Of a stretch of DNA of 64,000 bases, positions 5,569-62,309 are shown piece by piece; positions within the stretch are counted from its first letter, which is position 1, and each line of letters begins with the position of its first letter. The notes under the pieces were generated by a model, which worked only from the letters and a program-made list of their open reading frames with translations, did no database searches and was not told where the DNA came from. Source of the stretch: Candidatus Woesearchaeota archaeon (GTDB lineage: Archaea > Nanobdellota > Nanobdellia > Woesearchaeales > JACPJR01); NCBI GenBank assembly GCA_016187565.1, contig JACPJR010000026.1:44232-108231 (forward strand), written 5' to 3'. The translations under genes were made by a program, and so were the position numbers.

Positions 5569-5967
5569 TTACTCCATTATTAAATATTTTTGTTGTCTCA
5601 TCACCATGCGCTTGGCATGTGCTTCTTGTAAACGTCGCTTCAATTCACGATCATTTGTTGCAATGATGTACTGGTCTTTATGCTCTTTAACAAGCGAGAC
5701 AATGGCATCATCAACCGTGCTCTGGGTCATGGGAATGACCATGAGTTCTTTTGCTTGGATAAGGCACAAAGCAAGCTTTGCAGCCCGTTTATCTCCTCCT
5801 TTTTGAGTTTCAAGGATTTTTTGAAGCTCTTCAAAGGTTTTTTCCATGATACAGAGCTTATAAGGAAAATGACATATCCTCTGTATCTCACTGAAGATAT
5901 CCAGGTTAAATTGGCCTGGAATCATCAAAAAGTTTGTGTCTAAGATTATTTTTAAAGGTTTCTGCAT
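5569..5967 (-). CDS. PIN-domain nuclease (conserved RpoE-operon PIN protein)
   Basis: ILDTNFLM N-terminal PIN motif and IIATNDRELKRR C-terminal motif. The same operon position is seen across archaea. Confidence 0.7.
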   Translation of the reverse strand: MQKPLKIILDTNFLMIPGQFNLDIFSEIQRICHFPYKLCIMEKTFEELQKILETQKGGDKRAAKLALCLIQAKELMVIPMTQSTVDDAIVSLVKEHKDQYIIATNDRELKRRLQEAHAKRMVMRQQKYLIME

Positions 5968-34659: not shown

Positions 34660-35085
34660 ATGACAAAACGGTACTGGCTTGATACTTCGCTTTGGAGAGA
34701 TTTCTACGAGGACAGAACAAGTAAAGCGGGTAATCCACTTGGAAAATATGCAGCAAATCTTTTCATAAAGATACTCCAAAAGAGAGATATTATACTATTC
34801 TCAAAATCATTAATTTGGGAACTAAAAAAAGATTATCCTGAAAAGGATATTTATGATATGCTTGGGTTTCTTTTTATGAATAATGTCCTTCTAAAAATTG
34901 AAATCACAAAAGAAGAGTATCTTGAAGCAAAGAGGCTAGCTCAATTGAGGAATATACCTTTTGTCGACTGTCTTAATGCAATCCAAGCAAGGAATCATAG
35001 TGCTCTCCTTATTTCACAGGACAAACATTTTCATAAAAACCTATCAGATATAGTAAAGACAATGAAGCCACAGGATATTACTTAA
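34660..35085 (+). CDS. PIN-domain (VapC-like) protein
   Basis: N-terminal WLDTSLW and C-terminal FVDCLNAIQARNHSALLISQDKHF PIN motifs. Confidence 0.5.
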   Translation: MTKRYWLDTSLWRDFYEDRTSKAGNPLGKYAANLFIKILQKRDIILFSKSLIWELKKDYPEKDIYDMLGFLFMNNVLLKIEITKEEYLEAKRLAQLRNIPFVDCLNAIQARNHSALLISQDKHFHKNLSDIVKTMKPQDIT

Positions 35086-36317: not shown

Positions 36318-37139
36318 TTATTTAAAGGTTTGGACGTGTTTAATAATCTCCGTTGAAACCTCTCGGAAATCTGGTACTCTTTGAAGATAGTTTTTCAATT
36401 CTTTATCCCATCCAGCTTCTTTCTCTTTGACCTTTTTGATAAACCTCTGTTCTTCGAAAGTCTCTTGATAGTAGGCAAGTTTTATGTTCGTTGATTGCAC
36501 GTCAAAAGTTGCTCCTTTTTTTATGAGAAAGAAGAAATCAAAAACATCTCTGGACTTATTTCTTGTCATAATAGCTCTTACTTTCTCAGCTAAAATCTCA
36601 TGTTCATGCATAACAAGGAGCGTGTAAGGGGTGAGATCCCTATACAGGGGGATTATTTGTTTGAGATTTGGTTTCAAAAGAACGTCTTCACGGGTACTGA
36701 TTTCGACTCTGAGATGATAGATACTTGATGGGTTGGTCGTATAAAGCGGACCTTGTATGTTTATCTTAAAGGTCTTTCCAATGGTTTTTATCTCTTGCAC
36801 CGTATTTTTATATCCGAATTCAGTAATGTTCTTACTTACTTTCTCCATTATCTGATGAGTGTTGGTTTCATGGGCTTGGGTAAAATCGAGATCGACACTG
36901 AACCGGTTTAGACTATACACTTTCTGTAACGCAGTACCCCCCTTAAAAATAAGGCTGTTGGCAGTATTCCTTGATAAGAAGAGAAGAAATACGTGTTGAA
37001 GATAATCCATCTCTGCTTGGCCAAGATTGTATCCGAGCATCCTCGCATATTCCTGTAGCTCACCTTTGAGTATCATTTGCAAACACCTCGTTTGTGAGAA
37101 GTCTCCATTTTGATGAGCGTTTCGCAGTTTTAGGAGCAA
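36318..37139 (-). CDS. abiEii: AbiEii-family nucleotidyltransferase toxin (DUF1814)
   Basis: Motifs FKGGTAL and RFSVDLDF, plus N-terminal EMDYLQHVFLLFL. Overlaps the 3' end of the upstream AbiEi gene; the start may be the downstream Met. Confidence 0.7.
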   Translation of the reverse strand: MLLKLRNAHQNGDFSQTRCLQMILKGELQEYARMLGYNLGQAEMDYLQHVFLLFLSRNTANSLIFKGGTALQKVYSLNRFSVDLDFTQAHETNTHQIMEKVSKNITEFGYKNTVQEIKTIGKTFKINIQGPLYTTNPSSIYHLRVEISTREDVLLKPNLKQIIPLYRDLTPYTLLVMHEHEILAEKVRAIMTRNKSRDVFDFFFLIKKGATFDVQSTNIKLAYYQETFEEQRFIKKVKEKEAGWDKELKNYLQRVPDFREVSTEIIKHVQTFK

Positions 37140-37803
37140 AGGGATTCAGCAGATCATATCTACTGTTTAATCTCCCTTTGAGTTGGTCGTACACATCAAT
37201 TCCTTGTAATTCTAGGAGATATCCAAGTCTTTTAATGGTTACTTTTGAATCCATAAGGAGTGCATATCTGATAAGCTTGTCAATAGCTAACTCGTTGTTT
37301 TTCAGCGCCTCAAAACTTTCGCTTATCGGGCAATGTCGTGGCAAATACAGGGAATCGATGATTGCTTTTTCAGGTTCCGCGATAAAAAGATAATGATTGC
37401 TCTGTTGCTCTCTTCGATATCCAAAAAGATGGCGTTTTTTAAATTTGATAAAGGTAATGTCCATATTGTCGAGCCGGAGCGTTTTTTTCGAAGTTAGGCA
37501 AACTACCTTTACGACAATGGGGATTTGGGTGGTGAAGCCATAGAAAGAATAGGCACTGATGAATGAGAGATAGGAAGGAAAAATAAGGTTGGTGGCAATC
37601 GCAAGGGTATCATTTACCTTTGTGTATTTTCCCTTTTCAACCTCCTGAATAAGATTTCTTTTGATGAGCCTATGAACATAGATGCGTGCATATTCTCTGC
37701 TTTTCCCGGTGATCCTAATAATCTCATTAAGCGTGATGACGGGATTAGATATCTTTTCAAGCTCCTGAAGAAACGGTATTGCCTGCATGTACCTTTGAAG
37801 CAA
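37060..37803 (-). CDS. abiEi: AbiEi-family antitoxin / transcriptional regulator
   Basis: N-terminal winged HTH (ITLNEIIRITGKSREYARIYVHRLIKRNLIQEVEKGKY), C-terminal AbiEi_3-like domain, paired with AbiEii. Confidence 0.6.
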   Translation of the reverse strand: MLQRYMQAIPFLQELEKISNPVITLNEIIRITGKSREYARIYVHRLIKRNLIQEVEKGKYTKVNDTLAIATNLIFPSYLSFISAYSFYGFTTQIPIVVKVVCLTSKKTLRLDNMDITFIKFKKRHLFGYRREQQSNHYLFIAEPEKAIIDSLYLPRHCPISESFEALKNNELAIDKLIRYALLMDSKVTIKRLGYLLELQGIDVYDQLKGRLNSRYDLLNPFAPKTAKRSSKWRLLTNEVFANDTQR

Positions 37804-42810: not shown

Positions 42811-43416
42811 CTAATGTTTTGCTTTATTCCTTCCCCGTTGTTGAACGTGTGCTAATCGTTGTAAGATCGCCTTGTGGTCAGGCGATGAGCTATAGCCTTT
42901 ACAAAATGCAGACCAGCATGCATCTGCAATAGTATAATGTTTACTTGCCAATGCCTGTTGTAAGAGATGGAGGTCTACAGCTTTATCCTCTCTTTTGGTT
43001 GAAAAAAAGCTTAATCCAAAATCAACAAACACAATCTCCTTTTCTGGGGTAAGCATAATATTTGAGGTGGTAAGATCTCCATGGATGATATGGTTGGCAT
43101 GCATGAGTCCAACGTACTTTCCGATGGTTGTGAAGAGCTGCATATACGGAGCGGACTCAAGGACATCGCTTAAGGTACTTCCCTTAATATTTTCCATGGT
43201 GACACACCTCCCTTTATCATCGATGGCCAGTAAACGAGGACAGGGGATCTTGAGCAGTGTTAATGTTTCCATGACCTTTGCCTCTCTCCGTGTCCGTTGT
43301 TTTCTTAAGACATCATCCAGTTCAGGAAGACGGTATTGCTTGGGTCTTCGCTCCTTGACAATGGCATCCTTTTCTTGTAAGAGAACTGCCTCAGCCCCTT
43401 GAGAGATGATTTTCAT
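42811..43416 (-). CDS. bud32: KEOPS complex kinase Bud32
   Basis: Small RIO-like kinase: catalytic loop HGDLTTSNIM, DFGLS motif; 201 aa, not fused to Kae1. Confidence 0.75.
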   Translation of the reverse strand: MKIISQGAEAVLLQEKDAIVKERRPKQYRLPELDDVLRKQRTRREAKVMETLTLLKIPCPRLLAIDDKGRCVTMENIKGSTLSDVLESAPYMQLFTTIGKYVGLMHANHIIHGDLTTSNIMLTPEKEIVFVDFGLSFFSTKREDKAVDLHLLQQALASKHYTIADACWSAFCKGYSSSPDHKAILQRLAHVQQRGRNKAKH

Positions 43417-43460
43417 AAACTATTATTAATGGGGGAACTATTTAAACATTATGGCAAAGG

Positions 43461-43468
43461 TATAAATA
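43461..43468 (+). promoter_or_regulatory. TATA box (tataaata) ~26-33 nt upstream of tRNA start
   Basis: Read directly; spacing typical of archaeal tRNA promoters. Confidence 0.45.
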
Positions 43469-43493
43469 TAACTACGCCTGCACTGAGCGTAAC

Positions 43494-43646
43494 GCGGGGA
43501 TGCCGGAGTGGCCAAACACGGTAAGCAACTTACCTGGGTCAGACGGGACAGGCTTAGGCATTTCAAGGTGTGATGAGCCTTAGGGCAATGAAATGAAGAC
43601 ACCTGTTGGCTTAGTGCCTTCGCAGGTTCGAATCCTGCTCCCCGCA
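43494..43646 (+). tRNA. Intron-containing class II tRNA, most likely tRNA-Leu(TAG)
   Basis: Acceptor GCGGGGA/TCCCCGC with discriminator A. T-arm GCAGG-TTCGAAT-CCTGC. Variable-arm hairpin GGC-TTAGT-GCC. Anticodon stem ACAGG (43548-52)/CCTGT (43602-06) with loop CT-TAG-G interrupted after position 37 by a 42-nt intron (43559-43600) that itself forms a CATTTCA/TGAAATG helix. An extra ~25 nt (43523-43547) between the D-arm and anticodon stem suggests a second non-canonical intron. No encoded CCA. Confidence 0.7.
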
Positions 43647-43965
43647 TTCTTTTGCTTTCTCTTGCCAGCTCTTCTTCTCGATAAGCAAGGTTAGGGAAAG
43701 AATAGAGAAAACGAAAAATAACTGTTTCTATCGGGGAGGTACAAAAGGTTGGAAAGCCAAAATTCTTATCTTACAGGATTTGAAACCCCATCTACCCTTA
43801 CCAGGGAAACAATCCATTGCGAAAACTTTATAAAGGAGGATGGATATACTTTACCAAAACAGTTCAACAATAGGCGCTTCGGCGAGGTAGAGTGCTGTCT
43901 TGCCGAGGAAGACCGTACTGAAAACGATTAAAGTACCCAAAAAAATACACATGGAGGTGTAGCGA

Positions 43966-46434
43966 ATGAGGGTAAAAAAGGCGATTAGGAAAATTGCAGC
44001 CTTAGGAGCAGGAGCAACCATGCTAGGTGCAACGGTGCTCGGAGCAATGGCTGCTGATTTAAGCAACTATCCGAACCCACTATTCATCAAGGATGGTGTG
44101 TTTGATGCTGTTTTAGTTGTTGGTGATAATGCAGCAGCAGAAGACGTGGTTGGTGTGACCAACATTGCCATTGCAATGCAGGCTGCATCAGTCAAGAAGA
44201 CTCCGGTCGATACTGGAGCTGGCAGTACTACGGTTGTACAAGGTGATGCTGCCCAGATTAAAGAAAGTACTGATTATGTTGAATTTAACGAAACGTTAAG
44301 TTCGGTAAAAACCTCAGTGACCAAAACAGATATCAAGGCTTTGGCTGATGCCAATACCGGTTCTGCACTGAACACCGCAAGCGTTTCCCAGGTTATTAAC
44401 CTGCCGAATTCTACCAGAGTCATGTGGGAGCTATGGACAGATGTTAGTGATAAACCACAGGCCTATCTCAAGGTTGATGGAAGCAGTCTTGGTTACGAGT
44501 ACAAGGCAACCTTTACTCCTGCCTGGAAATCTGATCACACCACTGCCAATAGTGGAGAACTCAAGAACTTTGAGAACAAGAAGATAACCCTTTTGGGGAA
44601 GGAATACACGATAACTGATACCGACCACAGCACTACTAACAATGTAGCACTTACCTTGATGGGCGGTGCAGGAACCTTTACCCAAAAAGAAGGAACGAGC
44701 AAGACCATTACCGTAAATGGCGTTGAATATGCCGTAACAGTTGATGCAGTTGCTTCAGGACCAAAGGCCTACTTCACGGTTAATGGAGAATCAACCGGAG
44801 ACCTTGAAGAAGGAGAAACCTACCTCTTAAAAGATGGTAGTGAGTTGGGTGTAACCAATATGATTTACTATGGTTATGCATCCGAGATTGGTAATCAGGT
44901 TACCTTTACGGTTGGAGCTAAGAAAGTAAAGCTCACTGATGCCAACACCTCTAATAACAACTATGGTGGGTCCCTTGAAGTTGGTACCAACACGGTTGAT
45001 GCTGTTGGTGTTGATATCATCACCGGAACTGATGCAGGAACAACTGAAGGTGCAGACGTTACTATTAGTGAAATCCGTGTCAAATACACGCCTTCAACGA
45101 CACTCTATATTACACCAGGAACGACCATGGATGCAGCTGCTACAAAGGAAGAGGGTGAATCCGGAAATTTCTTCCTCAGTGCTTTTGATATTGACTACAA
45201 AGGCATGGACTATGGCAAGACCGAGGAAATCTCCTTAAGTGGTTCAGACAACTACTACAAGTTGAAATGGACCAACAAGTTGGGAGGAACTGCCAATGCG
45301 GAAATCTTTTCCATCAACGGAACTGGTGTCGTACTTGGATATTATTCCTCTCCGGTCAGAGACTTGGTTCTCAACGAAACAGAACCCATTGCTGATGAGG
45401 AATACCTTGTTGTTTCCAAGAACGAGTACAGCCACATCCTCCAGTATAGGGGAATAGACATCAGTAACACCCAGGCAAAGTTTGACGATGAGAACAATGC
45501 AGGCGTTACCTATGTGGGAACCTACACGGGAACAACCGGTACGGTAACTATTGATGGTAATTCCTACACTTTTGTCGTACCAAGTTCTCCGACAGCAACC
45601 TCATCGCTTACCTCGTTTGATATGAACGGTGATGGTGACTATGGTGATGTTGCAGGAGACAGTTGTTATGGTGCAACTGACGACTTGGCAGATGGTCTTT
45701 ACACCCAGTATGGGGCCTGTATTGCGTTTAACACAACTGCGGAAAACAAGTTTTCCGTAACCAGCAACCAGATGGACGATGGTTCAACCAGAGTTACCTG
45801 GAGATCTGGTAATGTCTATGTTTCCAGTAACGAACTGCAGTACAACACAACCTCACCAACCCAGGGCTCAGAGATTTACAGCTATGCCCAACTTGGTGAC
45901 TCAACGTTGTATGAGGCAGCAGACAAGTACGGAACAATCTACCAAGAGAACAGGCCAACCAGTGGTCAGAACTCTTTGAAGATTACCTTCCCGAAGCAAC
46001 AGGCAATGGGTTTGGTCTATGTCACTGCAGGAGATACGACAACCTCAACAGGAACCAGCGGCGTCAATACTGATGACGTCCAAGAGATTGGTCTTGGTGC
46101 TGTTAAATTAGCATCTGAGATAGCCAATGTCAAGGCACAGAATGCAATTGTTGTTGGTGGACCATGTGTCAACCCAGCAGCTGCTACCTTGCTCGACAAT
46201 CCAGCTGATTGTGCATCTGGATTTACTGAAGGAAAAGCGAAGATTAAGCTCTTCCAGAACGGTGACTATGTCGCTATGCTTGTTGCAGGATATAGCGCAG
46301 CAGACACCAGACGAGCAACCAATGTAGCCTCTGACTATGCAAGCTATAAGGACCAACTTACTGGTGACGAAGTTGAAGTTACCGGTACCAGCTTGACGGA
46401 CATAACCGTTGGCAAGCCAACAGTAACTGGATAA
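43966..46434 (+). CDS. S-layer protein (Methanococcus-type S_layer_N / S_layer_C architecture)
   Basis: Signal peptide KIAALGAGATMLGATVLGAMA. N-terminal block DLSNYPNPLFIKDGVFDAVLVVGDNAAAEDVVGVTNIAIAM. C-terminal block VKAQNAIVVGGPCVNPAAATLL...YVAMLVAGYSAADTRRAT. Thr/Gly-rich central region with sequons. Confidence 0.75.
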   Translation: MRVKKAIRKIAALGAGATMLGATVLGAMAADLSNYPNPLFIKDGVFDAVLVVGDNAAAEDVVGVTNIAIAMQAASVKKTPVDTGAGSTTVVQGDAAQIKESTDYVEFNETLSSVKTSVTKTDIKALADANTGSALNTASVSQVINLPNSTRVMWELWTDVSDKPQAYLKVDGSSLGYEYKATFTPAWKSDHTTANSGELKNFENKKITLLGKEYTITDTDHSTTNNVALTLMGGAGTFTQKEGTSKTITVNGVEYAVTVDAVASGPKAYFTVNGESTGDLEEGETYLLKDGSELGVTNMIYYGYASEIGNQVTFTVGAKKVKLTDANTSNNNYGGSLEVGTNTVDAVGVDIITGTDAGTTEGADVTISEIRVKYTPSTTLYITPGTTMDAAATKEEGESGNFFLSAFDIDYKGMDYGKTEEISLSGSDNYYKLKWTNKLGGTANAEIFSINGTGVVLGYYSSPVRDLVLNETEPIADEEYLVVSKNEYSHILQYRGIDISNTQAKFDDENNAGVTYVGTYTGTTGTVTIDGNSYTFVVPSSPTATSSLTSFDMNGDGDYGDVAGDSCYGATDDLADGLYTQYGACIAFNTTAENKFSVTSNQMDDGSTRVTWRSGNVYVSSNELQYNTTSPTQGSEIYSYAQLGDSTLYEAADKYGTIYQENRPTSGQNSLKITFPKQQAMGLVYVTAGDTTTSTGTSGVNTDDVQEIGLGAVKLASEIANVKAQNAIVVGGPCVNPAAATLLDNPADCASGFTEGKAKIKLFQNGDYVAMLVAGYSAADTRRATNVASDYASYKDQLTGDEVEVTGTSLTDITVGKPTVTG

Positions 46435-46540
46435 GAGCGCAACGCTCTTTTTTCTCTTTTTTTCTTTTCCTTCTTGTTGTTGTTTATCTTCATGTTCCTG
46501 ACATTCCTCTTATATGTAGGGATGAATAGTTTACGTTTAA

Positions 46541-47110
46541 TTGTCGTTGATCACCATGAAACTTCGCTCGCTGTATAGTCTGTTATCAATGGTTCTTGCA
46601 CTCTTTTTCTCTAGTTTCCTCATGCCTCAGGTAGATGGGGCTGATCTTCATGATTATCCAGATCTTTTCTTTGCTGATGGTCATTTCAATGGGCTTTTGG
46701 TGGTTGGTGATTATGCCAATGCAGCAGATGTGGTAGGTGTTACCTATGTTGCGTTGAGCTTACAGGCATACAGCAACACTGCCATTAATGTAGAGGCTGT
46801 TCGTTTGGCCTCTGAAATAACCAATGTCAGTGCCCAAAATCTGATTGTGGTTGGCGGACCTTGTATTAATACCGTTGCAGCAGAACTAATGGATTATCCA
46901 GTTCCCTGTACCAAGGGCTTCAGTCAGGGAATGGGATCTATTCAGCTTTATGAGCATCCTAATGGAAATATTGCTATTCTTGTTGCAGGATTAGAAGCCA
47001 TTGACACCAAGCGAGCAGCGCTTGTTCTGGCAAAGTACGATCAATACCAGATTTCTGGAACGAATGTTGAGGTCACGACAAGCACTGAACCACAGATTCT
47101 TATTCGGTAA
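46541..47110 (+). CDS. Minimal S-layer paralog (N- and C-terminal S-layer domains only)
   Basis: Signal peptide, then DLHDYPDLFFADGHFNGLLVVGDYANAADVVGVTYVALSLQA fused directly to AQNLIVVGGPCINTVAAEL...IAILVAGLEAIDTKRAAL; 189 aa. Confidence 0.6.
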   Translation: MSLITMKLRSLYSLLSMVLALFFSSFLMPQVDGADLHDYPDLFFADGHFNGLLVVGDYANAADVVGVTYVALSLQAYSNTAINVEAVRLASEITNVSAQNLIVVGGPCINTVAAELMDYPVPCTKGFSQGMGSIQLYEHPNGNIAILVAGLEAIDTKRAALVLAKYDQYQISGTNVEVTTSTEPQILIR

Positions 47111-48864: not shown

Positions 48865-49758
48865 TCACTTGGCATATCTATAATACATTTTCAAATATCT
48901 CTTTACTAAAGATTGTACAAAAATATAGTCTTTGTTCTTCGTCTGGCTTCTCTCGAGAGCGTTATAATAACTGTTTCGGTTTGTATACTCAATGTTTAAC
49001 ATCGGATAGCTGTGCTTATGCAATACAAAATTCATCATTAATCTTGAAATTCTTCCATTACCATCGCTAAATGGATGGATAGTTACAAATTTCAAATGAA
49101 CCAACGAAGCCAAGACTACGGGGTTTAGTTTACTTTTATTTTTATGGTACCAGCTACAAAAATCATGGAGCAAAATATCAAGCTCTGCTGGGAATGGTAG
49201 TTCTACTTTGCTTCGAGCAATAGCTACTTGATGCTTTCTTATTACCCCTGCAATATCAGGCTTGGTGTCTTGTAAAAGTAGCTTGTGCCAATAAAGTACC
49301 GTAGACAGACTTAAATCTTTCTTAGAGTCTAGCATTTCATAGAAAACTTTCCTATGAGCTTCTGCTTCTTTCACATCCTCTAGAGGCTTATTTCTGGGCG
49401 TTATGTGTTGCTGTAACAAATCAGCCGTTTCTTTCAACGACAGTGTACTACCCTCTATTCTGTTGGTGTTATACGTAAATCTAATCATAAATGATTCAAT
49501 GTGCTGTTCTCTCGCAGAAGGGGGATAGGTAGAGAAATCCTCGCTAAATTTCTTCTGAATACTCTCAAGATTTTCGTTAAATTTCTCTAAGAATAGCTCG
49601 TGCATGAATTTTTCTTTAATTAATGCTGTATTCTTAGGCTCTTCAGAACCAAGATACTTTCTTTTGTTCCTAAATCTCTTACCTTCTCTGATGGTGTGTT
49701 CGAGATAATAATAAGTCTTACCTTTAACTGTTCTTATCCTCAGGTTCACCATAAACAC
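48865..49758 (-). CDS. Fic/DOC-family protein (putative AMPylase)
   Basis: Fic motif HPFSDGNGRISR; 297 aa. Confidence 0.8.
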   Translation of the reverse strand: MFMVNLRIRTVKGKTYYYLEHTIREGKRFRNKRKYLGSEEPKNTALIKEKFMHELFLEKFNENLESIQKKFSEDFSTYPPSAREQHIESFMIRFTYNTNRIEGSTLSLKETADLLQQHITPRNKPLEDVKEAEAHRKVFYEMLDSKKDLSLSTVLYWHKLLLQDTKPDIAGVIRKHQVAIARSKVELPFPAELDILLHDFCSWYHKNKSKLNPVVLASLVHLKFVTIHPFSDGNGRISRLMMNFVLHKHSYPMLNIEYTNRNSYYNALERSQTKNKDYIFVQSLVKRYLKMYYRYAK

Positions 49759-61871: not shown

Positions 61872-62309
61872 CTATTTGGTTTTTTCTTTTTCTTCAGGAA
61901 AAAACAGTTTTACAATATGCTTTGTCTTAAAAACTCTAACTTTATTCTGTTTTTCAAGATGAGGGTCATCTGACCACATCTTAGAATTTTCAATGCCAAA
62001 AGCAGTTGCCAAGAAAACAACATCATCAGGATCAATTTTTCCAAGAAGTTTATCAACTTCTTCTATTTTAAGCTTAATCTGCTCTTCTGGGACTAAAGTA
62101 ATATGCTTTAGTAAATGATTTAACAATTCTGTATATTCTTCTTCATTCATTCCAGATTTTTCTAGAACTAAATCTTTATACTTCCTTATCTCGTGGAAAG
62201 AAGATTCTGGATAGAAAAAGTCCCAGCCAGACTCAACAATAATCTTTCTTACAGTAGAATCCCTAATAAGACTAGCAAGAAGGATATTAGAGTCAATGAC
62301 AAGAATCAT
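61872..62309 (-). CDS. vapC: PIN-domain toxin VapC
   Basis: MILVIDSNILLA N-terminal PIN motif and DDVVFLATAF C-terminal motif; 145 aa; overlaps vapB by 4 nt. Confidence 0.65.
   Translation of the reverse strand: MILVIDSNILLASLIRDSTVRKIIVESGWDFFYPESSFHEIRKYKDLVLEKSGMNEEEYTELLNHLLKHITLVPEEQIKLKIEEVDKLLGKIDPDDVVFLATAFGIENSKMWSDDPHLEKQNKVRVFKTKHIVKLFFPEEKEKTK

Follow-up and report, generated by a model that had tools for sequence, protein, structure and literature searches.

Multi-intron transfer RNA (tRNA) genes and introns of variable position are well known in the Thermoproteales (PMC4033280; PMC5829648). tRNAs that combine a D-loop intron with one at position 37/38 have been documented, multi-intron tRNAs have been reported across the DPANN superphylum, and tRNA genes were predicted for a Woesearchaeota metagenome-assembled genome (MAG) in a survey of disrupted tRNAs (PMC5829648). 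DPANN archaea often carry alpha4-type splicing endonucleases with an 'L3' insert, which are associated with a larger number of disrupted tRNA genes, and the incomplete tRNA sets of DPANN MAGs have been attributed to disrupted genes that escape detection (Kaneta et al. 2018, PMC5829648). Relaxed D-loop introns are cleaved efficiently by broad-specificity enzymes and poorly by strict ones (PMC5829648). Here we describe a two-intron tRNA-Leu(UAG) gene located at 43494-43646 (+) of a 64-kb stretch of Candidatus Woesearchaeota DNA (hereafter the window, in whose numbering all coordinates are given). The gene is of a type that is already known, since multi-intron and D-loop-intron tRNAs are documented in archaea and in DPANN.

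Among the described systems, the pre-tRNA-Glu(UUC) of Methanopyrus kandleri (PMC5829648) resembles this gene in that a D-loop intron, at 20b/21 with a relaxed HBh' motif and so one nucleotide from the 21/22 site here, is combined with an intron at 37/38, which in M. kandleri is a canonical BHB. In both, the D-loop site is relaxed and the anticodon-loop site near-canonical, and the endonuclease EndA is presumed to remove both introns. The two genes differ in isotype and lineage (Glu in the Euryarchaeota, class II Leu in DPANN), their intron sequences are unrelated, and the M. kandleri case is backed by RNA sequencing and in vitro cleavage (PMC5829648), whereas the window gene is known from its sequence alone. 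A second likeness is offered by archaea whose endonucleases have broad specificity, the Thermoproteales among them (Sugahara et al. 2007/2008 and Fujishima et al. 2010, as cited in PMC4033280): short introns with bulge-helix-bulge (BHB) or relaxed motifs lie outside the canonical position, as many as three in one gene, and their presence and position vary among orthologous genes of related genomes. In contrast to these lineages, DPANN endonucleases are without the crenarchaeal L1 loop and often have the 'L3' insert (PMC5829648), and we saw no evidence at this locus of similar introns in different tRNA species, the signature of transposition. Disrupted tRNAs of the same superphylum show the same phenomenon, including the hBH and BHL introns of ARMAN-2 (for example tRNA-Cys 59/60), the split tRNAs of N. 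equitans and the sets predicted for Pacearchaeota and Woesearchaeota (PMC5829648, Fig. 7). Compared with ARMAN and N. equitans, the window gene is contiguous, and its introns, each with two bulges and a central helix of 4 bp (or 3+1), come closer to a strict BHB than the BHL motifs of ARMAN.

We confirmed the 153-nt element as a genuine class II tRNA-Leu(UAG) gene with two introns. It is likely, with a probability of roughly 0.86, that the gene is functional and yields a precursor of ~153 nt from which two protein-spliced BHB-type introns are removed, one of 27 nt at position 21/22 and one of 42 nt at 37/38. From 5' to 3' the gene reads GCGGGGA-UG-CCG-GAGU-GGCC-AAA-CAC-GGUAAG-CAA-CUUACC-UG-GGUC-AGA-CGG-G-ACAGG-CUUAGG-[42 nt]-A-CCUGU-[15-nt variable region]-GCAGG-UUCGAAU-CCUGC-UCCCCGC-A, with the acceptor strands GCGGGGA and TCCCCGC at 43494-43500 and 43639-43646, the latter including the discriminator A. 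An earlier note on this DNA had already recognized the acceptor stem, the T-arm GCAGG-TTCGAAT-CCTGC, the long variable arm and the stem ACAGG/CCTGT enclosing CT-TAG-G, all of which are present where it placed them. Its reading of the gene as class II tRNA-Leu with a TAG anticodon is borne out by nine orthologues and by ARAGORN, which calls the spliced 84 nt Leu(tag).

The orthologues come from other Woesearchaeota/DPANN assemblies and bring the total to ten genes. A Bud32 homologue 75% identical to that of the window led to the contig of the close relative L003, which is syntenic with the window (S-layer genes, Bud32, HTH_10 and a fumarase-class lyase); the other eight, L004-L011, were found by scanning species-representative genomes and JGI metagenomes with an exon-3 pattern. 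The two-intron structure of the window gene and its exon boundaries are demonstrated by this comparison. L003 and the window agree at 84/84 exon nucleotides although their Bud32 proteins are only 75% identical; in place of the segment 43516-43542, L003 has 44 nt that form another hairpin, and three substitutions and one indel separate the 37/38 introns of the two genes. Seven orthologues (L004, L005, L007, L008, L009, L010 and L011) are without a D-loop intron, and their uninterrupted D-arms read ...[C/G]C[G/A][G/A]AG[C/U]GG[C/U]CAAA[C/U]G[G/U]GACAG.... Deleting ACACGGUAAGCAACUUACCUGGGUCAG (43516-43542) from the window gene leaves CCGGAGUGGCCAAACGGGACAGG, which is collinear with these seven genes, and the mature D-arm predicted in this way, CCGGAGUGGCCAA↓ACGGG (the arrow marking the junction), matches the orthologous CAAA[C/U]GGG. 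The more distant orthologue L006 is interrupted by 20 nt at this D-loop site, in the textbook layout GGCC-AAA-UUCA-AAUGA-UGAA-GGUC-AGA-CGG.

These boundaries divide the gene into three exons, each identical in L003 and all on the plus strand. Exon 1 (43494-43515, tRNA positions 1-21) comprises the 5' strand of the acceptor stem, U8, G9, the D-stem strand CCG and G13 A14 G15 U16 G18 G19 C20 C20a A20b A21, and is collinear with the D-arms of the seven genes in which the intron is missing. It is followed by intron 1 (43516-43542, 27 nt), a non-canonical D-loop intron assigned from orthologue comparison and folding. Exon 2 (43543-43558, positions 22-37) holds A22 C23 G24 G25 as the 3' strand of the D-stem, G26, the anticodon stem strand ACAGG, C32, U33, the anticodon UAG (43555-43557) and G37; the Leu(tag) call on the spliced sequence supports its limits. 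The canonical intron 2 (43559-43600, 42 nt) separates it from exon 3 (43601-43646, positions 38-73), which consists of A38, the 3' anticodon stem strand CCUGU, a variable region of 15 nt with a GGC/GCC stem, the T-arm GCAGG-UUCGAAU-CCUGC, the 3' acceptor strand and A73 (43646). CCA is not encoded at the 3' end of the gene. The exons follow one another in order within a single stretch of 153 nt, and the gene is neither split nor permuted.

The spliced window gene forms a cloverleaf with a 7-bp acceptor stem, a 3-bp D-stem extended by G13:A22, a 5-bp anticodon stem and a 5-bp T-stem. U8, A14, G15, G18, G19, A21, U33, G53-T54-T55-C56, C61 and A73 are all present in the spliced sequences, and the long variable arm, A73 and the leucine anticodon TAG mark the product as class II tRNA-Leu. 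A73 and the variable arm are identity elements for archaeal LeuRS. In silico splicing of all ten genes gives 84 nt in each case, and each product is called tRNA-Leu(tag) by ARAGORN. Across the ten-gene alignment the acceptor stem changes on both strands (for example from G5-C to A5-U), and the D-stem pair G12:C23 changes to A12:U23.

Placement of intron 1 at 21/22 means that exon 1 ends ...G18 G19 C20 C20a A20b A21 and that exon 2 begins A22 C23 G24 G25 G26. The junctions 21/22, 22/23 and 23/24 are equivalent at the sequence level and give the same product; only 21/22 is in the register of archaeal BHB substrates, in which a 4-bp central helix is followed on each strand by a 3-nt bulge that is cut between its second and third nucleotides. 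In this register the exon sequence GGCC (43510-43513) pairs with the intron sequence GGUC (43537-43540), the bulges are AA↓A on the 5' side (43514-43516) and AG↓A on the 3' side (43541-43543), and the intron closes into a hairpin of CA/UG, a bulged C and GGUAAG-CAA-CUUACC (43517-43536). The minimum free energy (MFE) structure of the D-arm and intron together (43503-43546) consists of the D-stem CCG/CGG, an internal loop GAG/GA, the helix UGGCC/GGUCA, the bulge AAA and the intron hairpin (-15.3 kcal/mol, z = -2.4, 68% of the ensemble), and the central-helix pairs have probabilities of 0.98-0.99 within the full precursor. This geometry is demonstrably conserved: the same fold is the MFE structure in the window, L003 and L006, despite hairpins unrelated in sequence and length, and GGCC/GGUC with AA↓A and AG↓A recurs in all three genes. 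Removal of the intron restores a standard tRNA, as is seen with relaxed BHB introns. With the boundaries taken from the orthologues, shuffled sequences show a strict BHB core at the D-loop site in 0.3% of cases in the exact register and in 0.9% in any of the three equivalent ones. The D-stem CCG/CGG is set off from the central helix by the unpaired residues G13 A14 G15 (U16), and we therefore class the 3' site of intron 1 as relaxed rather than strict.

An intron at 37/38 is present in ten of ten genes, as the earlier note had proposed for the window gene (43559-43600). These introns measure 28-52 nt, share the 3' context [A/G]AG-A[C/G/A]↓ and vary in their stems. In the window, removal of 43559-43600 restores the 7-nt loop CU-UAG-GA. 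The central helix pairs C32U33U34 with AAG and includes an A35xG mismatch; it lies between a 5' bulge GG↓C (G36 G37↓C) and a 3' bulge AC↓A (A38), with a stem of 6-7 bp, formed by the inverted repeat (C)AUUUCA/UGAAAU(G), as one outer helix and the 5-bp anticodon stem as the other. The ten genes all keep this arrangement. In the isolated anticodon arm of the window gene the two outer helices form on either side of a 6x6 loop, and both of them form in the isolated arms of eight of the ten genes. The chance of this register, with boundaries fixed by the orthologues and measured against shuffles, is 0.04%. Four orthologues (L005, L007, L009 and L011) carry, in addition to the 37/38 intron, a mini-intron of 17 or 30 nt in the anticodon stem at 30/31. 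These genes lie at L005:395-547 and L011:150-302, with the L007 gene ending at 607 and the L009 gene on the minus strand (T-arm match 1583-1619). Their 30/31 introns follow the same cut register, GGAC-(AG↓A)...G[U/A][U/C]C-(AA↓G), and have unrelated outer helices of 3-9 bp. Within the 37/38 intron of the window gene, AGCCTTAGG (43576-43584) is a near copy of the anticodon-loop sequence AGGCTTAGG (43550-43558); the copy is not conserved in L003, and the resemblance is therefore probably coincidental.

Several observations weigh against a functional, twice-spliced gene. The 3' splice site of intron 1 falls within a 3x2/4x3 internal loop and presents no clean bulge, and strict alpha4/alpha'2 endonucleases may cut relaxed sites of this kind poorly (PMC5829648). 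Only three genes with the D-loop intron were found, and GGCC/GGUC is invariant among them, so that no covariation is seen. The central helix of intron 2 has three Watson-Crick pairs plus A35xG, and three pairs with a mismatch are the rule in nine of the ten genes. An unconstrained scan for strict BHB cores is non-specific, returning 30 hits in the 153-nt gene against ~26 per shuffle; BHB geometry therefore counts as evidence only where the boundaries have been fixed independently. Among the 47 of 50 window open reading frames (ORFs) that were scanned, neither a splicing endonuclease (tRNA_int_endo) nor RtcB was found. Finally, the cloverleaf/BHB fold of the full 153 nt (-54.0 kcal/mol) is 8 kcal/mol less stable than the MFE structure (-62.1 kcal/mol), which contains a helix between the intronic AGGUGU (43567-43572) and ACACCU (43599-43604), the latter spanning the 3' junction of intron 2. 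GGUGU is invariant in six of the ten otherwise divergent 37/38 introns, and RNAalifold on six of these introns returned no BHB but this invariant AGGUGU/ACACCU helix, for which covariation is not possible because the partner is exon sequence. The predicted helix could be a conformer that inhibits or orders splicing, or it could merely be inherited sequence.

Two of these observations, the relaxed 3' site of intron 1 and a full-length MFE structure that is not competent for splicing, would also fit a decaying pseudogene, in which a tRNA-Leu had been inactivated by a 27-nt D-loop insert that is neither removed nor tolerated. We regard this as improbable. The exons are identical at 84/84 positions against 75% identity for Bud32, while the introns and the 3' flank diverge, and the promoter-like block upstream is conserved in L003. 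The insert retains BHB geometry in three genes despite total replacement of its hairpin. In addition, no second tRNA-Leu(UAG) copy was seen in the window or at the L003 locus.

It is highly improbable that the transcript is instead spliced only once and that the mature tRNA keeps the additional 27 nt as an expanded D-arm, an outcome that the earlier note had itself named. The insert does form a stable stem-loop, yet its retention would sequester G18 and G19, which are needed for contact with the T-loop. The length of the insert varies between 20, 27 and 44 nt among close relatives with invariant exons, seven orthologues do without it, and the parts of it that are conserved are exactly those that build the BHB (GGUCAG↓A).

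The position of intron 1 is where we depart from the earlier note. It had counted ~25 extra nucleotides 5' of the anticodon stem and had assigned them to a second, non-canonical intron at 25-27, between the anticodon stem and a D-arm CCGGAGUGGCCAAACACGG. An insertion that includes CCTGGGTCAGACGGG is indeed present and is an intron, but it is 27 nt long and the seven orthologues that have no intron there place it in the D-loop, at 21/22. A junction at 25-27 is very hard to sustain. CCG...CGG (43503-43505 and 43519-43521) can be drawn as a D-stem enclosing a D-loop with A14 and GG, and ARAGORN in intron mode draws the same D-arm CCGGAGUGGCCAAACACGG; the mature sequence that follows from it, CAAACACGG(G), would have two extra nucleotides (CAAACACGGG) relative to the D-arm of the seven insertion-free orthologues, with C rather than A at position 21. 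The CGG at 43519-43521, taken as the 3' strand of the D-stem, is intronic; the true strand is the CGG at 43544-43546, inside what had been described as a second D-arm-like motif. That motif, CCTGGGTCAGACGGG, is composed of the 3' end of the intron, CCUGGGUCAG, which pairs with exon (U)GGCC, and of the true 3' D-stem strand with G26 (ACGGG). In L003 the stretch CACGG becomes CAUGG, although exon bases are all invariant, and in L006 it is missing. The note had suggested a search for BHB motifs at both junctions, and in the registers fixed by the orthologues both introns do have BHB geometry, that of intron 2 with a mismatch in its central helix; there is no such register for the 25-27 placement, for which shifting the register leaves 0/4 and 2/4 of the central pairs.

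That intron 2 might contain a box C/D guide RNA, like the intron of euryarchaeal tRNA-Trp, is scarcely credible. GUGAUGA (43570-43576) fits box C, and there is a weak Rfam match to sR40 at 43537-43593 (14.6 bits, E = 1.6), but this match falls well short of the 50-bit gathering score and runs across exon 2. Intron 2 has no CUGA box D and, at 42 nt, is too short for a C/D'/C'/D arrangement. Only the window gene and L003 have the box C match, which gives way to other sequences in L006, L005, L011 and L009 (GUUAUGG, GUUACGA, GUUGAAA), and the putative guide differs between the window and L003. The remaining alternative, a tRNA-Arg(TCT) of 82 nt with a single 71-nt anticodon-loop intron (43533-43603), can be dismissed, for although it is the sole ARAGORN call in intron mode, it has an A.G mismatch in the anticodon stem, takes as its anticodon stem and loop the divergent hairpin of intron 1 (AAGCAACUU) that is replaced in L003 and L006 and missing in seven orthologues, lacks agreement with the long variable arm and A73, which are class II/Leu features, and comes from a program that is inconsistent on the other two-intron orthologues (Val, Thr, Arg) while calling the single-intron ones Leu(tag).

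The practical value of the tRNA-Leu(UAG) gene with introns at 21/22 and 37/38 lies first in annotation, since standard tRNA finders miss or mislabel two-intron tRNA-Leu genes. Neither ARAGORN in default mode nor Rfam at gathering thresholds reports any RNA gene across the 64-kb window, and an Rfam search of 43400-43750 by E-value gives only an 18-nt RF00005 fragment in the T-arm (14.5 bits) and noise. ARAGORN in intron mode finds a single gene in 64 kb, the only tRNA gene detectable in the window; it returns the exact ends 43494-43646 but the wrong label, tRNA-Arg(tct) with a 71-nt intron. The same pattern extends to the orthologues: in intron mode (-i) the unedited single-intron genes L004 and L008 are reported as Leu(tag) with anticodon-loop introns of 37 and 34 nt, every two-intron gene receives a wrong isotype (Val, Thr or Arg), and the default mode finds none of the latter. 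The window gene is a concrete, resolved tRNA-Leu(UAG) example of the undetected disrupted genes suspected in DPANN MAGs (PMC5829648).

Following transcription of a precursor of ~153 nt, we propose that the GGUC at the 3' end of intron 1 pairs with G18 G19 C20 C20a, which would form the 4-bp central helix between AA↓A and AG↓A. The intron hairpin would serve as one outer helix of the intron 1 BHB and the 3-bp D-stem as the other. The archaeal splicing endonuclease would then cut both pairs of bulges, an RtcB-type ligase would join the three exons, and CCA addition would give a tRNA of 84+3 nt that reads CUA and CUG (CUN) codons. We infer transcription, endonuclease cleavage, ligation and aminoacylation of this tRNA indirectly, from the conservation of the exons. 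The association drawn in the earlier note between multiple introns and lineages with broadened endonuclease specificity fits a DPANN host (PMC5829648).

Across the ten genes, three intron configurations occur: 37/38 alone, 21/22 with 37/38, and 30/31 with 37/38, the mini-introns being 17-44 nt long. It is possible, though we think it unlikely, that these configurations reflect recent gain and loss of position-variable BHB mini-introns in DPANN, together with a possible origin of the D-loop intron by tandem duplication. On this view a palindromic D-loop segment, GGCC-AAA-C..GG, may have been duplicated locally in tandem and so have given rise to the intron; the candidate copies are UGGCCAAACACGG (43509-43521, the end of exon 1 and the start of the intron) and GGGUCAGAC-GGG (43536-43547, the end of the intron and the start of exon 2). 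Since GGCC is self-complementary, a tandem duplication would by itself create a bulge-helix-bulge. The likeness between UGGCCAAACACGG and GGGUCAGAC-GGG may equally be imposed by structure, and L006 has no ACGG-like start to its intron. The locus reveals no new mechanism; it is of interest chiefly for annotation and because one Woesearchaeota tRNA gene is seen in three intron configurations. The orthologue series constitutes a small, clean data set on the turnover of tRNA introns outside the Thermoproteales, and supplies defined substrates for studying the specificity of DPANN splicing endonucleases.

The flanks of the gene contain candidate signals for its expression. A TATA-box-like element read from the sequence, TATAAATAT at 43461-43469 (+), lies 25-33 nt upstream of tRNA position 1 and is a probable archaeal promoter; the block 43453-43493 that contains it is nearly invariant in L003, and the 3' flank diverges within ~8 nt. 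Downstream, the T-rich trailer TTCTTTTGCTTTCTCTT at 43647-43663 (+) probably acts as a transcription stop.

The host is a DPANN archaeon, as indicated by the neighbouring Bud32 gene and by archaeal housekeeping ORFs. The former, a Bud32/RIO-type kinase at 42811-43416 (-), is divergent to the tRNA gene; its product is 100% identical to an NCBI protein labelled 'Candidatus Woesearchaeota archaeon', and the best-scoring homologues of this kinase all belong to Woesearchaeota/Nanoarchaeia. The latter encode Rpo7-like, S24e, aIF2-alpha, GINS51, PAC2, GatE and NOG1 proteins. The G+C content of the window is 41%. Identical contigs occur in the sequencing runs SRR12113426 and SRR12113433. Around the more distant Bud32 homologues P0003, P0010 and P0016 (~55% identity) the neighbourhood is not conserved, and ARAGORN finds no tRNA there in default or intron mode. 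An exact look-up of the S-layer-like neighbour at 43966-46434 matched no record. This gene is part of an adjoining pair for S-layer-like proteins (PF05124; 822 and 189 aa) at 43966-47110 (+) that lies directly downstream of the tRNA gene and is syntenic at L003:629-3719. In L003 the tRNA gene and Bud32 are separated by an inserted gene for a histidine phosphatase. Elsewhere the window contains genes of toxin-antitoxin or defence type, namely an AbiEii/AbiEi pair, three PIN-domain proteins and one Fic/DOC protein, at 36318-37788 (-), 5569-5967 (-), 34660-35085 (+), 61872-62309 (-) and 48865-49758 (-).

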